A stretch of 64,000 nt of DNA from assembly GCA_038065495.1 (NCBI GenBank), contig JBBTQW010000002.1, positions 81,321 through 145,320 on the forward strand, read 5' to 3'. Within the stretch, counting starts at the first letter, position 1. The number at the start of each line of letters is the position of its first letter. This document shows, in pieces, positions 4,635-28,817 of this stretch. The position numbers were made by a program, and so were the translations under genes. This stretch comes from Patescibacteria group bacterium (lineage in GTDB: Bacteria; Patescibacteriota; Minisyncoccia; Phycocordibacterales; JACOZG01). The notes under the pieces are model-generated. The model had not been told where the DNA came from, ran no database searches, and saw only the letters and a program-made list of their open reading frames with translations.

Positions 4635-4691
4635 AGTGGGGATAGTTTAGCAGATTTGACTTTGGCCGTCAATATAATAAGCTAAAGGTTC

Positions 4692-5765
4692 ATGATCATC
4701 AAAGTTTACAATAAAAAGTTCGAAACTTGGGCTTATCTGGTGATAGATAGTTTAAAATTAGGTCCAGGCAAGGGCGGCATCCGCATGACGCCAAGCGTGA
4801 CCGAAGAAGAAGTCTCGCGTCTCGCCCGGGCGATGACGCTTAAGAACGCGCTGGCTAATATCCCCTTTGGTGGTGCTAAGTCTGGTATCACTTTTGATCC
4901 AAAAATTCACACCAGCAAAGAAAAAAAAGAAATTGTGGAATGGTTCGCGCAAGAACTAAAACCCCTACTCGTTCACAGTTACATCGCCGGACCGGACATC
5001 AACATGACGGAAAAGGAGATGCAATGGTTTGTGGAAGCAGTAAAGAATAACCGCGCGGCAACAGGTAAGCCGAAAAAATTAGGTGGTTTACCGCACGAGC
5101 TGGGCAGTACTGGCTACGGCGTGGCCCAAGCGGCTAAACTAGCACTAGAGTTTAAAAAAATCCCGATCAAGCAAGCTAGCATTGCAATCGAAGGTTATGG
5201 CAATGTGGGTGTTTTTGCTCATCAATTCCTGCAAGAGATGGGCGCGAAGGTGGTCGCCGTATCTGACTCACGTGGCGCAATTTATCTCGAAACTGGTTTG
5301 GATTATAAAAAGTTAGTGAAAATTAAAAAGCAAACTGGTTCTGTCGTTAATTACGCTAATCTTGATAAAAATAGCAGAAAGTTAAGCAATTCAGCCATCT
5401 TTACTCTACCGGTGAGCGTGTTGATTCCGGCGGCCTTGCCAGACGTGATTAATGCCAAAAATATTGACGAAGTAAAAGCAAAAATAATTGTGGAAGGCGC
5501 CAATATCCCAATGCGCGAAGAATTTGAGAAAATTCTGCATCAGCGCGGCGTGCTAATTATCCCCGATATTATTGCGAACGCCGGTGGCGTGATCTCCTCT
5601 TATGCCGAACACAAAAACTTTACGGCAGAAAAAATGTTCAAATTAGTAGCAGAAAAAATTTCTGCCAGCACTCGCGCGCTCTTGCGAGCACTAGCTAAAT
5701 CTAAGAAAACGCCACGCGAGATTGCTTGGCAATTAGCAGAGAAAAAGCTAGGCTCCAAACTCTAA
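4692..5765 (+). CDS. Glu/Leu/Phe/Val dehydrogenase-family protein (leucine/valine dehydrogenase-like)
   Basis: LGPGKGGIRMTPSVTEEEVSRLARAMTLKNA...GGAKSGI matches the LeuDH/PheDH catalytic lysine region; Rossmann motif GYGNVG. Confidence 0.7.
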   Translation: MIIKVYNKKFETWAYLVIDSLKLGPGKGGIRMTPSVTEEEVSRLARAMTLKNALANIPFGGAKSGITFDPKIHTSKEKKEIVEWFAQELKPLLVHSYIAGPDINMTEKEMQWFVEAVKNNRAATGKPKKLGGLPHELGSTGYGVAQAAKLALEFKKIPIKQASIAIEGYGNVGVFAHQFLQEMGAKVVAVSDSRGAIYLETGLDYKKLVKIKKQTGSVVNYANLDKNSRKLSNSAIFTLPVSVLIPAALPDVINAKNIDEVKAKIIVEGANIPMREEFEKILHQRGVLIIPDIIANAGGVISSYAEHKNFTAEKMFKLVAEKISASTRALLRALAKSKKTPREIAWQLAEKKLGSKL

Positions 5766-25826: not shown

Positions 25827-26378
25827 CTAACTCCCAATTTCCGTCTCTTTGCGCGCTTTCATTTCGTCTATTTTTGCACTTTCTGCATCCACAATTTTCT
25901 GCAATTCTTCTTTCAACCTAAACTTATCGTCTTCGCTAATTTCTTTATTCTTTTCTTTTTCTTGAATCTCATTCCAAGTTTTTTCCCGTTCTTTCCGGAG
26001 CGAGATTTTTGCTTCTTCAGATTTTTCGTGAGCGAGTTTAAGTAAAATCTTGCGTTTATCAGCCGTTAATTCTGGGAAAATCACACGGATCGCCGTGCCG
26101 TCTGTGGTGACAGACACGCCAAGATTTGCAACTTGAATAGCCTGCTCCACGCCTCTGACTTGCGACTGATCCCACAAGCCAATCTTGAGCGTCCGCACAT
26201 CCTCCACGCCAATCGCGCCCACGCTCTTGAGCGGGACCCGCGCGCCGTAGCTCTCCACTTGCACGCTATCCAAGAGCGCTGGCGTGGCTCGACCCGTCCG
26301 AATGCTCGCAAACTCCCGCCCGAGCCAATCCTCGATCTCGGTAATCTTATTTTTTAAACTAGCAAAGTTGTAACTCAT
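25827..26378 (-). CDS. frr: ribosome recycling factor
   Basis: Full-length match to the Frr pattern (…ASIRTGRATPALLDSVQVESYG…). Confidence 0.9.
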   Translation of the reverse strand: MSYNFASLKNKITEIEDWLGREFASIRTGRATPALLDSVQVESYGARVPLKSVGAIGVEDVRTLKIGLWDQSQVRGVEQAIQVANLGVSVTTDGTAIRVIFPELTADKRKILLKLAHEKSEEAKISLRKEREKTWNEIQEKEKNKEISEDDKFRLKEELQKIVDAESAKIDEMKARKETEIGS

Positions 26379-26406
26379 AAAAATTATTCTACCAGATTTT
26401 TAGACA

Positions 26407-26436
26407 AGAAAAAAGGCGCACCGCTAGGGATGCGCC
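26407..26436 (-). terminator. intrinsic terminator on the minus strand after the 26474..26977 transcription unit
   Basis: ggcgca-ccgctaggga-tgcgcc hairpin; the plus-strand A-run gives a T-run after the hairpin on the minus strand. Confidence 0.6.
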
Positions 26437-26473
26437 TTGGAGATTTTGCGAAAACCTGCCTAAAAACATTGCC

Positions 26474-26977
26474 CTACGAGCCCCACCGAGAGTGACGACT
26501 GTTACGTACCTCCCAGGAATTCCGGCACATTTGCCGAGGATATGAACCCATCTTCGCAAACTTGTCTGCCAACTCCTGGAAAGTGCCCTTCTCCCGTGCT
26601 GAGACCCAAGAATGTATCCGAGGTGGGCAACTTATTTTAACTGGCCGAACCCATCCGTGCCTGCCCCGGTTATGACCCCACAGCCATCGATACCCTTTAT
26701 AAGATATCTTGAGCTTAGAAACAAAGTGTTGTTCGGGACTGTATCGCACCTCAGGAAGAGACGATCCGGTGGCCACAACACGAATACCGCCACCAAACAA
26801 AACGACTCGCCAATGTAATTCGTCGATCAATGTCCATGCTGGAGCAGAAGTATACTTAATTTGTTTGGGGAAGAACATAGGTAGTTCAACTTCCTTTTCT
26901 GCGCGAACCTGATCAATGGCGATCAAGCTTTGTTTGATAACCTGAATTACAAATTCAGGAAGGACGATAGTAGTCAT
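26474..26977 (-). CDS. hypothetical protein. The N-terminal ~95 aa look protein-like; the C-terminal ~70 aa (W/R/H-rich, GC-rich DNA) look non-coding, so the 3' part may instead be a structured RNA.
   Basis: ATG preceded by an AAAGGTGG RBS and a consensus promoter. Only one frame is open, but the 3' half has aberrant composition (…YRWLWGHNRGRHGWVRPVKISCPPRIHSW…). Confidence 0.4.
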   Translation of the reverse strand: MTTIVLPEFVIQVIKQSLIAIDQVRAEKEVELPMFFPKQIKYTSAPAWTLIDELHWRVVLFGGGIRVVATGSSLPEVRYSPEQHFVSKLKISYKGYRWLWGHNRGRHGWVRPVKISCPPRIHSWVSAREKGTFQELADKFAKMGSYPRQMCRNSWEVRNSRHSRWGS

Positions 26978-27082
26978 AACGACCACCTTTCTTCCGTACT
27001 GATAACACGGACAATTCGATGCGCAAATAACGCACCAACTCTTAACTAAATTGTGAAAGAACGCCTCTCACTTCCAACCCCC

Positions 27083-27110
27083 ATTATAGCAAATGGGTAG
27101 AAATTGTCAA
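27083..27110 (-). promoter_or_regulatory. near-consensus sigma70 promoter (TTGACA-N16-TATAAT on the minus strand) driving the 26474..26977 unit with a ~100-nt leader
   Basis: Reverse complement reads ccccTTGACAatttctacccatttgcTATAATggggg. Confidence 0.6.
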
Positions 27111-27130
27111 GGGGTAAAAAGTGCTTATTC

Positions 27131-27856
27131 TTAGCCCTGCTTTAGCACCGGCAAAATGAGCGCAATGTGTTGCAGAACTAATCTAGAAGCGCCAGATGGA
27201 TGTGATAAGTGCTCGCGGCCAGCGCGGATTTCGGCTAGAGCGAAGATTAATTGCTCACTCGCCTCTTGTGGTTTGAGTATTTTTGCTAAAGCTTGCTCGA
27301 GATTATTTAAAAAATCCAAACTCACGCCTTTGTGATTATCTTCGTTATCGTCTAGTAATTTTTCGAGATATTTTAATCTCACTTCTGGATTATTTTTGAT
27401 AAAATCTAATATTTCTGTTTGCTCTATTTTTTCTTCTGTTTTATTTTCAGTTTTTTCCGGCAAAATTAACTTTTCTAAGCGAGATAAAAGCGTAGGCAAG
27501 AGCAAGCCAGAATTACTTGTCCCCAAGATGAAAACTGTGCCGAGTGGCGGTTCTTCGAGGATTTTCAATAAAACATTCTGCGCTTCGGGCGTGATGCTCT
27601 CGAACCAGATCAGAATAAACTTTTTATTTTCTACATCACTCGCTCGCCCACCACGTTCGCGAATCTCGCGCGCTTCGTTGATGCCAATAATGCCAAAAGT
27701 CCAATTCTCTATTTTATTTTTTTCCTCGTTGAGTAGCAGAGAATCAGGCAAGCCAGACCAAACTTCTGTCGTGCTAGTGACGAGATAAGCGTGATGCTTA
27801 AAATCAGTTTTTGGAGATGATACTCTTTTTGTAGACATTGAGATGCTCCAGCGCAA
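27131..27856 (-). CDS. holB: DNA polymerase III delta-prime (HolB)-like clamp-loader subunit, short form
   Basis: HAYLVTS..., the ILEEPP sensor-motif region and AAA+ lid. The start may be the internal MSTKRV methionine. Confidence 0.6.
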   Translation of the reverse strand: MRWSISMSTKRVSSPKTDFKHHAYLVTSTTEVWSGLPDSLLLNEEKNKIENWTFGIIGINEAREIRERGGRASDVENKKFILIWFESITPEAQNVLLKILEEPPLGTVFILGTSNSGLLLPTLLSRLEKLILPEKTENKTEEKIEQTEILDFIKNNPEVRLKYLEKLLDDNEDNHKGVSLDFLNNLEQALAKILKPQEASEQLIFALAEIRAGREHLSHPSGASRLVLQHIALILPVLKQG

Positions 27857-28817
27857 TGCCGGTGCCGTTGACGACGCAGTAGAGCGGATCGGTGGCCACG
27901 CGCGCTTTTACTCCAGTGCGCCGGTAAACCAGTTCTGCGAGGTTAGATAACTGCGCCGAGCCGCCGGTCATAATCACGCCGTGGTCGATGATGTCACTAG
28001 CCAGCTCGGGTGGAGTGTCTTGGAAGACGCTCTTGATTGCTTTCACAATTTCGCGTAATTCATTATCAATCGCTTTTACAATCTCATTCGTTTTTACTTC
28101 CGCTGATCTGGGTAGACCGGTGAGGAAGTCGCGGCCTTTGATGGTATAAGATTCTTCGTTCTCAATCGGCACGGCGGAACCAATTTTGATCTTCACTTCT
28201 TCCGCCGTTTTATCACCAATCGCGAGATTGAAAGTTTTTTTGATGTAATCCGTAATCGCCTGATCTATCTTATTGCCCGCGTACTTTACAGACGTAGAAG
28301 CCACGATGCCGCCCAAACTAATTACCGCCACATCGGTAGTACCACCGCCAATATCGCAAACCATATGACCTCTTGGCTCATAGATCGGAATGCCCGCGCC
28401 GATAGCGGCCAAAATTGGCTCTTTAACGACGTAAGCATTCTTCGCGCCCGCTTTGAGTGCTGCTTCTATAACAGCTCGCCGTTCCGTACTCGTCACACCG
28501 GCGGGGACAGAGATCATCACGTCTGGTTTGAAGAAGTTAAACTTGCCGATTGCTTTATTGATATAGTAACGCAACATTACTTCTGTCACTCGGTAATCCG
28601 CAATTACGCCGTCCTTCATCGGCCGATAGGCGGTAATATTATCCGGCGTTTTGCCGATCATCTCTTTGGCCTCAAGACCAACGGCTAAGACTTTATTATC
28701 AAGTTCTGAAACGGCAACAACCGACGGCTCGTTTAAGACAATTCCTCGTCCGGGGACGAAGACGAGCGTATTGGCTGTGCCAAGATCAATGCCCAATTTT
28801 TTGACCCAAAAGCTCAT
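27804..28817 (-). CDS. mreB: second MreB/Mbl-family actin homologue (paralog)
   Basis: LGIDLGTANTLVFV, DIGGGTTD and MTGGSA motifs; clearly distinct from the 21976..23028 copy. Confidence 0.85.
   Translation of the reverse strand: MSFWVKKLGIDLGTANTLVFVPGRGIVLNEPSVVAVSELDNKVLAVGLEAKEMIGKTPDNITAYRPMKDGVIADYRVTEVMLRYYINKAIGKFNFFKPDVMISVPAGVTSTERRAVIEAALKAGAKNAYVVKEPILAAIGAGIPIYEPRGHMVCDIGGGTTDVAVISLGGIVASTSVKYAGNKIDQAITDYIKKTFNLAIGDKTAEEVKIKIGSAVPIENEESYTIKGRDFLTGLPRSAEVKTNEIVKAIDNELREIVKAIKSVFQDTPPELASDIIDHGVIMTGGSAQLSNLAELVYRRTGVKARVATDPLYCVVNGTGIALEHLNVYKKSIISKN

Follow-up and report, generated by a model that had tools for sequence, protein, structure and literature searches.

Between the housekeeping genes holB and frr of a Patescibacteria group bacterium (contig JBBTQW010000002.1, positions 81,321 to 145,320; these 64,000 nucleotides (nt) are referred to as the window), a 167-codon open reading frame (ORF) lies behind a consensus promoter, and its last 72 codons do not resemble coding sequence. 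The locus thus raises the question whether the 3′ half of this ORF encodes protein or is a structured RNA, as proposed by a first-pass annotation made from the letters alone. The evidence presented here makes it very probable that the ORF encodes a genuine small basic protein, expressed from a self-contained unit, and that this unit occupies a swappable holB-frr slot under a conserved promoter.

Judged by its signals, the region reads as one self-contained transcription unit, comprising a promoter, a leader with three hairpins, the 167-codon gene, and an intrinsic terminator. Its main parts are:

27083-27110, minus strand: consensus sigma-70 promoter (TTGACA at 27110-27105, 16-nt spacer, TATAAT at 27088-27083; 12 of 12 consensus positions)
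26983-26987, minus strand: Shine-Dalgarno sequence GGTGG, located 5 nt ahead of the start codon (ATG, 26977) and inside the conserved AGAARGGTGGTC
26609-26977, minus strand: coding sequence for residues 1-123, conserved core of a three-member ORFan family (helix plus antiparallel sheet), including the start of the W/R-rich region
26477-26608, minus strand: coding sequence for residues 124-167, a basic lineage-specific tail without alignable homologue, in frame and hence presumably translated
26407-26438, minus strand: intrinsic terminator (10-bp stem, 6-nt loop, T-run; hairpin stem at 26438-26413)

A consensus scan also detected an extended -10 element (TG at 27091-27090), and TTGACA-N16-TGnTATAAT occurred only once in the window. 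Assuming that transcription starts about 7 nt past the -10 box, the leader is ~99 nt long. The ORF extends from the ATG at 26977 to the stop codon at 26476-26474, and its product begins with MTTIVLPEF. This start was confirmed by the homologue P0002 (described below), which begins with MTIVNLPEF. The terminator follows the stop codon after 35 nt. All of these elements (promoter, good ribosome-binding site, ~100-nt leader, ORF, and terminator) had been recognized by the first-pass annotation, with coordinates that were exact or at most 2 nt off.

The same annotation had described the last ~70 codons as GC-richer and rich in W, R, and H. This description applied to the last 72 codons, which in addition showed non-coding-like codon usage. 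The GC content was 0.43 for codons 1-95 and 0.55 for codons 96-167, with the biggest rise at codon position 2 (from 0.36 to 0.57). As such, a shift of this size is locally unremarkable, as nearby 100-nt windows span 0.23-0.69. W, R, and H together made up 21 of the 72 residues, whereas 15 was not exceeded in any of 12,579 windows of 72 residues from 41 other ORFs. The isoelectric point (pI) was 11.4 for the C-terminal half and 10.2 for the whole protein. A codon log-odds score was trained on 37 other long ORFs of the window. For the 5′ half, it amounted to +0.16 in frame vs. -0.52 and -0.84 out of frame. For the 3′ half, the in-frame score was -0.30, which could not be distinguished from its other frames (i.e. 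without any frame preference). When windows of 72 codons were taken from the 37 ORFs, their 1st percentile was -0.05, and the 3′ half scored lower.

Evidence for a coding 3′ half came from comparison with distant relatives of the protein. Only two homologues were found by a phmmer search over 1.84 billion cluster representatives: P0002 (134 amino acids (aa), E = 4e-7) and P0003 (158 aa, E = 1.6e-4). In pairwise BLASTP against the window protein, their E-values were 9e-17 and 4e-12, respectively. The alignment with P0003 continued through residue 123 (YKGYRWLWGHNRG—RHGWVRPVKISCPPRIHS vs. YRGAKWQWRGGRAERSRKNWSRPIQLCTRPRYHS), with the motif W-x-W … R-P … P-R-x-H-S. Residues W98, W100, R106, R111, and P112 were invariant in all three proteins. 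Amino-acid identity between the window protein and P0003 was 39% over residues 96-123, compared with 26% over the N-terminal half. Threading the codons through the alignment of residues 96-123 gave nucleotide identities of 0.39, 0.61, and 0.25 for the first, second, and third codon position, respectively. As third positions match at the random level of 25% while amino acids are conserved, this is the signature of selection on protein and not on RNA. By this pattern (positions 1 and 2 above position 3), residues 96-123 classify as part of a protein-coding gene, and the 3′ half is coding at least up to residue 123.

The unusual composition is a family trait, since both homologues have it. W, R, H, G, and K accounted for fractions of 0.40 and 0.36 in the C-terminal halves of the homologues vs. 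0.23-0.25 in the N-terminal halves, and GC at codon position 2 was also raised in both basic C-terminal halves. The raised GC content and the non-coding appearance of the 3′ half can be attributed to TGG, CGN, GGN, and CCN codons, which raise position-2 GC, and to a gene foreign to the codon usage of the genome. A GC-rich, W/R/H-rich segment with non-coding codon statistics thus proved to be real protein, and two very distant homologues sufficed to recognize it.

Could the true protein be only ~95 aa long, with 26440-26720 being a divergent known or a new structured RNA or cis-element whose frame is open by accident? The missing frame preference agrees with this possibility, as does the fact that the 3′ half folds better than its shuffled versions (z = -2.5). 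Moreover, residues 124-167 have no homologue, and 72 stop-free codons at the composition of the 3′ half have a chance of 0.03, a value which counts in favour of coding but leaves an accidental open frame unlikely yet possible. The z-score, however, includes the terminator, and the 5′ half, which is clearly coding, folds no worse (-3.1). Since both halves fold about equally well, there is no thermodynamic mark of a special 3′ half.

The Rfam and covariance-model scan that the first-pass annotation had proposed as a check was run, and no family matched. At gathering score, Rfam 15 returned three tRNAs only for the whole window. At E ≤ 10 with permissive filters, region 26350-27180 yielded nothing but noise and matches resembling terminators (Atu_C9, mmgR), with scores far under gathering. 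No tmRNA was found by ARAGORN, and the region did not match any of the structured RNA families in Rfam 15, including tmRNA, RNase P RNA, signal recognition particle (SRP) RNA, 6S, ROOL, GOLLD, OLE, riboswitches, and leaders. A novel structured RNA in the 3′ half is likewise at odds with the homologous loci, which display conserved amino acids and 25% identity at third codon positions. In syntenic loci of close relatives, nothing alignable was detected at the position of the 3′ half. As these relatives share the flanks, a conserved housekeeping RNA at this site can be dismissed.

Two further observations are relevant. In the AlphaFold2 (AF2) model, strands 88-93 and 96-101 are adjacent in one sheet and form the best-predicted block, so that the boundary placed near residue 95 by the first-pass annotation would split a predicted beta-sheet. 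Also, the W/R-rich composition is common to both homologues although their DNA is unalignable. Taken with the conservation up to residue 123, these results make an RNA with an accidentally open frame extremely improbable, and the structured-RNA reading is largely refuted. The headline of the first-pass annotation, a short protein followed by structured RNA or a dual-function transcript, is contradicted by Rfam, ARAGORN, and the amino-acid conservation in P0003. Its own reasoning had been that conservation of amino acids, not nucleotides, over the C-terminal 70 residues would speak against RNA, and this is largely what P0003 displays over residues 96-123. The third alternative it had listed, an unusual Trp/Arg-rich C-terminal region, is favoured by the evidence.

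A different question is whether the protein is functional to its end. Tail residues 124-167 may be lineage-specific or even functionless. In the latter case, a core up to about residue 123 would be functional, and the last ~44 codons would be a recent extension due to a lost stop codon or a frameshift, possibly with a dual-function RNA resembling a 3′ untranslated region (UTR). The homologues stop 13-35 residues past the conserved R-P, compared with 55 in the window protein; an open frame of 44 codons is insignificant alone (p = 0.13); AF2 confidence in the tail is 34-38; and the worst codon usage lies in the 3′ half. Opposed to this are a loose resemblance to the P0003 tail (HS-AEKK … ATLQDLLQG vs. 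HSWVSAREKG-TFQELADKF, both predicted or plausibly helical), a terminator at normal distance past the stop codon, and the identity of the gene in three independent assemblies, with no decay visible. On balance, we consider a functionless tail unlikely.

Several points weigh against a coding 3′ half, beyond its codon score. Of the 72 odd residues, only 28 are covered by homology; the stretch 124-167 lacks such support and could be a functionless read-through extension. A family of only three members makes for a thin protein alignment and for equally thin covariation in the leader (n = 2, see below). The AF2 model is poor (mean predicted local distance difference test (pLDDT) of 53, and below 45 past residue 103), and fold searches with it were uninformative.

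The family appeared to be very small in all collections searched. Neither the protein and its homologues nor the other genes found at the same site in relatives (see below) had a significant match in Pfam, NCBIfam, PHROGs, PADLOC, or PDB sequence profiles. A word-indexed protein search with the single sequence retrieved only the sequence itself, and a profile of the three sequences retrieved the same three proteins. Searching contigs with the family profile returned only the already known L004 contig among genome contigs and none among metagenome and viral contigs. Phage, plasmid, and viral collections contained no relatives of the gene or of three other occupants of the site tested.

The genomic context provided the second part of the answer. 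The gene is flanked on both sides by core genes:

27134-27838, minus strand: holB-like gene (DNA polymerase III delta′-like, 235 aa; Pfam PF13177), upstream flank of the ORF
25827-26378, minus strand: frr, ribosome recycling factor gene (Pfam PF01765), downstream flank of the ORF

Close relatives were reached through homologues of the flanking delta′ protein (holB amino-acid identity of 67-87%). Their gene order is fmt-def-priA-like, MreB, holB, [X], frr, rseP, where the cargo X differs from locus to locus:

window: 167 aa
L013: 139 aa
L014: 248 aa
L015 and L016: 194 aa
L018: 77 aa
L020: at least 54 aa

No mutual similarity was detected among the six cargos by BLASTP or tblastn, and they had no Pfam or PADLOC match. 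Three cargos carry obvious hydrophobic membrane segments, and four of the six have no or little soluble-domain annotation. In four loci, the flanks are 79-96% identical at the nucleotide level, whereas cargo identity is 0.21-0.49, i.e. at background level. Specifically, the last 300 nt of holB are 84-89% identical to L013, L014, and L015, and the first 300 nt of frr are 85-96% identical to the relatives. The promoter is preserved nearly base for base in L013, L014, L015, L018, L019, L020, and L017, whatever the cargo. The end of holB is conserved in the same manner. Sequence between the first ~12 transcribed nt and the frr junction is unalignable among relatives, and the conserved edges are:

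27071-27082, minus strand: first ~12 transcribed nt, GGGGGTTGGAAG, conserved in relatives; the alignment is lost just downstream, which marks the left cassette boundary
26378-26412, minus strand: right conserved junction, comprising the T-run, the extended -10 element TGGTAGAAT (26394-26386), and the 7 nt that precede the frr ATG; the window shares the same sequence with L013 and L015, and L014 has a similar one

The terminator hairpin is common to the window and L015, with a compensatory change from G:C to A:U, and L013 and L014 have other hairpins before the same T-run. The right breakpoint is therefore variable: the hairpin lies after the breakpoint in the window and L015, and before it in L013 and L014. 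In sum, promoter, first ~12 transcribed bases, terminator T-run, and frr junction constitute a conserved backbone, while leader, ORF, and often the terminator stem are exchangeable cargo. In one Patescibacteria lineage, holB and frr enclose a hypervariable slot for a single gene, which in the window is occupied by the 167-codon ORF.

Two contigs of relatives end right at this slot, L019 at the -10 box (1914-1942) and L017 ~15 nt past it (4674-4719). Such ends are to be expected at branches of an assembly graph and hint at assembly breaks caused by cargo variants co-existing within a sample. In the distant relative L022, holB and frr are only 52 nt apart (4729-4782), which looks like an empty, ancestral-looking state of the slot.

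Three smaller observations were made at the edges of this slot. In the distant relative L021 (GCA_964567265.1, holB 31% identical), holB and frr are separated by a GC-rich spacer of 441 nt (4712-5152) without a called gene. It contains a promoter-like TTGACA-N17-TATCTT and a terminator-like end, and its forward-strand ORFs encode only 46 and 84 aa. The spacer had no Rfam match and a folding z-score of -2.55; it could be decayed cargo or an uncharacterised RNA. In L018, ~100 extra bases between the holB stop codon and the slot promoter (2261-2365) contain the motifs CCCCCTTA…TAAGGGGG in inverted arrangement, which may represent a small repeat element. In the window, frr is apparently leaderless: TGGTAGAAT lies 7 nt before its ATG at 26378, directly after the cassette terminator and without a Shine-Dalgarno sequence.

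Homologues of the window cargo were found at other genomic places. The L004 gene lies between Rrf2-type and STAS genes on a short contig binned as Gammaproteobacteria. In L007 (2415-3208), the P0002 gene directly follows polA; it is followed by a hydrophobic peptide of 48 aa, which has a separate ribosome-binding site, and by a ParE/YafQ-like toxin pair of 91 and 85 aa. This L007 patch is another accessory patch beside a core gene.

How might cargos be exchanged? Gene tables showed no recombinase among the neighbouring genes, and flanking direct repeats were absent. As no att-like site was present either and the right breakpoint varies, exchange would probably proceed by homologous recombination in the conserved flanks, in the style of minimal mobile elements or replacement islets. 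The slot would then express highly whichever accessory ORFan lands there. Two points count against this picture: the mechanism is read from the pattern alone, and the contigs compared are metagenomic and belong to lineages that differ at species level (by the holB identities given above), as opposed to strains of one population.

Minimal mobile elements, as known from Neisseria and also termed replacement flexible genomic islets, provide the closest counterpart. They have two conserved flanking genes and different whole-gene cassettes in each genome, and by sequence comparison both traits are found here: conserved holB and frr, at least six unrelated single-gene cassettes, and an empty site in a distant relative. 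Neither mobility gene nor flanking repeat is present at the slot. Two differences remain. Minimal mobile elements were described for strains of one naturally transformable species, whereas the slot is shared by related uncultured Patescibacteria lineages. Furthermore, the conserved flank here holds a consensus promoter plus the initial ~12 transcribed nt, which means that transcription is supplied by the backbone. The slot thus adds a new example to a known kind of genome plasticity, its peculiarity being that a consensus promoter comes from the backbone. It offers a clean case of minimal gene-cassette replacement in ultra-small groundwater Patescibacteria, in which one backbone promoter is given to at least six unrelated ORFans.

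The integron platform (promoter Pc, attI, promoterless cassette, attC) likewise comes to mind, since an exchangeable ORF, apparently lacking a promoter and with a hairpin at its end, lies downstream of a fixed strong promoter. In an integron-like, site-specific exchange, the promoter plus 12 nt would be an attI-like landing pad, and the 3′ hairpins would be attC-like. Such a scheme would accommodate the conserved promoter feeding cassettes without another evident promoter, the sharp left breakpoint at the same place in all alleles, and the hairpin at the end of every cassette. However, intI or any other integrase or recombinase is missing nearby; the neighbours are fmt, def, a priA-like gene, mreB, holB, frr, rseP, and a tRNA synthetase gene, and only housekeeping neighbours were found in L001 and L013-L016. 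The slot contains one cassette and not an array, and direct repeats around it are lacking. The 3′ hairpins are ordinary terminators with a GC stem and T-run that differ by allele, without the imperfect palindrome and core sites of attC, and the right breakpoint is variable. Finally, the homologous L007 cassette has its own promoter. We therefore regard integron-like exchange as very unlikely and retain recombination in the flanks as the preferred mechanism.

A third comparison is with the phage moron, a promoter-ORF-terminator unit inserted between conserved genes. The term was reportedly defined by Hendrix and colleagues. The window gene resembles a moron in being an autonomous unit of sigma-70 promoter, ORF, and factor-independent terminator between two genes that are adjacent in L022. 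It differs in that the flanks are cellular housekeeping genes, that viral, phage, and plasmid relatives were not found, and that the promoter belongs to the backbone and not to the insert. With cellular core genes as flanks, the unit does not classify as a moron.

Together with the ORF, the leader of the window gene belongs to the exchangeable part. The first-pass annotation had suspected a regulatory structure in this ~100-nt leader, and three hairpins were indeed common to the window and L007:

27053-27071, minus strand: hairpin P1, GUGAGAGgcguuCUUUCAC, followed by the conserved CACAAUUU; 7 pairs, 2 compensatory, 0 broken
27016-27038, minus strand: hairpin P2; 9 pairs, 3 compensatory, 0 broken (window vs. 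L007)
26993-27011, minus strand: hairpin P3, directly upstream of the Shine-Dalgarno sequence; 8 pairs, 2 compensatory, 0 broken

The upstream regions of the window gene and of the P0002 gene in L007 are recognisably homologous, and minimum-free-energy folding of each leader independently gave the same three hairpins. All 24 of 24 pairs were kept between the two leaders (RNAalifold, pair counts), with seven two-sided compensatory changes and two further pairs maintained by a one-sided change. As a control, pairing partners were slid by 1-3 columns, resulting in 0-1 compensatory pairs and 34-55% pairing. The P3 loop GUUAUCAG resembles the P2 loop, both being of the GUUAU type, and P3 abuts the conserved Shine-Dalgarno block AGAARGGUGGUC. 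These data are suggestive of a structured leader, as far as two sequences can indicate. A point to the contrary is that in the third homologue (L004), hairpins do precede the Shine-Dalgarno sequence, yet the leader sequence bears no recognisable similarity to the other two leaders. A covariance model of the leader found no other copy in the window or in 13 other loci (L004 scored 18 bits at a misplaced position). The DNA pattern GTTCYTYCACAATT…AGAARGGTGG had three matches in metagenome contigs, all chance hits in unrelated coding regions, and none in viral contigs.

Other leader elements were also considered. P1 with its trailing AAUUU(A/U), located less than 30 nt from the transcription start, was flagged as weakly terminator-like by a pattern scan; the corresponding sequence in L007 is GUGUGGGGuuguuCCUCCAC-AAUUUU. 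P1 could thus be a weak early attenuator. Two candidates were rejected: a 9-codon ORF starting with GTG in the window leader and a long-range pairing of the Shine-Dalgarno sequence with the codons for FFP, neither of which was conserved in L007. With its co-inherited three-hairpin leader, the protein represents a tiny new family of 3 clusters among about 15 billion proteins.

What the protein does can be approached through its anatomy. It would consist of an N-terminal alpha+beta domain and, continuous with it, a C-terminal region that is rich in Trp, Arg, and His and very basic (pI ~11). Possibly, the protein binds nucleic acid via its basic W/R-rich part, with leader hairpins P2 and P3 as its own operator for translational autoregulation. 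This guess is tentative, the odds being clearly on the other side, and was prompted by the pI, the conserved aromatic/arginine motif, and the co-inheritance of a leader in which two similar hairpins lie beside the Shine-Dalgarno sequence. That nothing other than charge and leader anatomy underlies it speaks against this guess. A functional analogy, and no more, is offered by the autoregulatory leaders found with small basic RNA-binding proteins (e.g. ribosomal-protein leaders), which have in common with the window gene a strong promoter, a structured leader whose hairpins abut the Shine-Dalgarno sequence, and a protein that is small and very basic. The differences are that the window leader shows no homology to ribosomal-protein or Rfam leaders, and that its family has three members as opposed to a universal distribution. 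The family is directly suited to RNA-binding tests.

A toxin or defence module in which the leader RNA acts as antidote or sensor (type III toxin-antitoxin or abortive infection) would also be compatible with the strong promoter, the accessory variable locus, and the small basic protein immediately preceded by structured RNA. The toxin pair beside the L007 homologue points in the same direction. Yet the leader lacks tandem direct repeats, and between leader and ORF there is only a weak hairpin with AAUUU and otherwise no terminator. The three proteins also had no PADLOC, Pfam, or PHROG match. By its lack of tandem leader repeats and of Pfam or PADLOC matches, the locus does not belong to the known type III toxin-antitoxin systems ToxIN, CptIN, and TenpIN. 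A toxin or defence module is consequently highly improbable, and nucleic-acid binding with autoregulation is kept as the tentative working idea.

A bolder interpretation, which we offer as a long shot, would connect slot and occupant. The holB-frr site would be a dedicated expression slot, in which the consensus promoter and the conserved 12-nt transcript start form the landing pad for promoterless leader-plus-ORF cassettes that are swapped repeatedly, in analogy to an integron platform without integrase. In this way, strongly expressed accessory ORFans would be sampled, most of them membrane proteins, perhaps with roles in host attachment or phage resistance. The present occupant would be a new kind of small protein that binds RNA, its Trp/Arg-rich region recognising the paired hairpins with GUUAU loops in the leader of the same transcript. 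Irrespective of this interpretation, slots of this kind are an obvious place to search for host-interaction or anti-phage functions in bacteria with almost wholly unannotated accessory genomes.

Finally, some observations were made on the wider neighbourhood. According to the gene tables, rseP and a class II tRNA synthetase gene follow further downstream of frr, and mreB, priA-like, def, and fmt genes lie further upstream of holB. An identical locus is present in the metagenome-assembled genome GCA_964356885.1 from the 0.1-µm fraction of Hainich groundwater, an aquifer whose wells H41 and H51 supplied contigs examined here. The neighbourhood contains two MreB paralogues, one at 27804-28817 of the window and the other ~4 kb downstream of frr (L001, 9950-11002). 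The second paralogue is followed by mreC and a PBP2-like gene.

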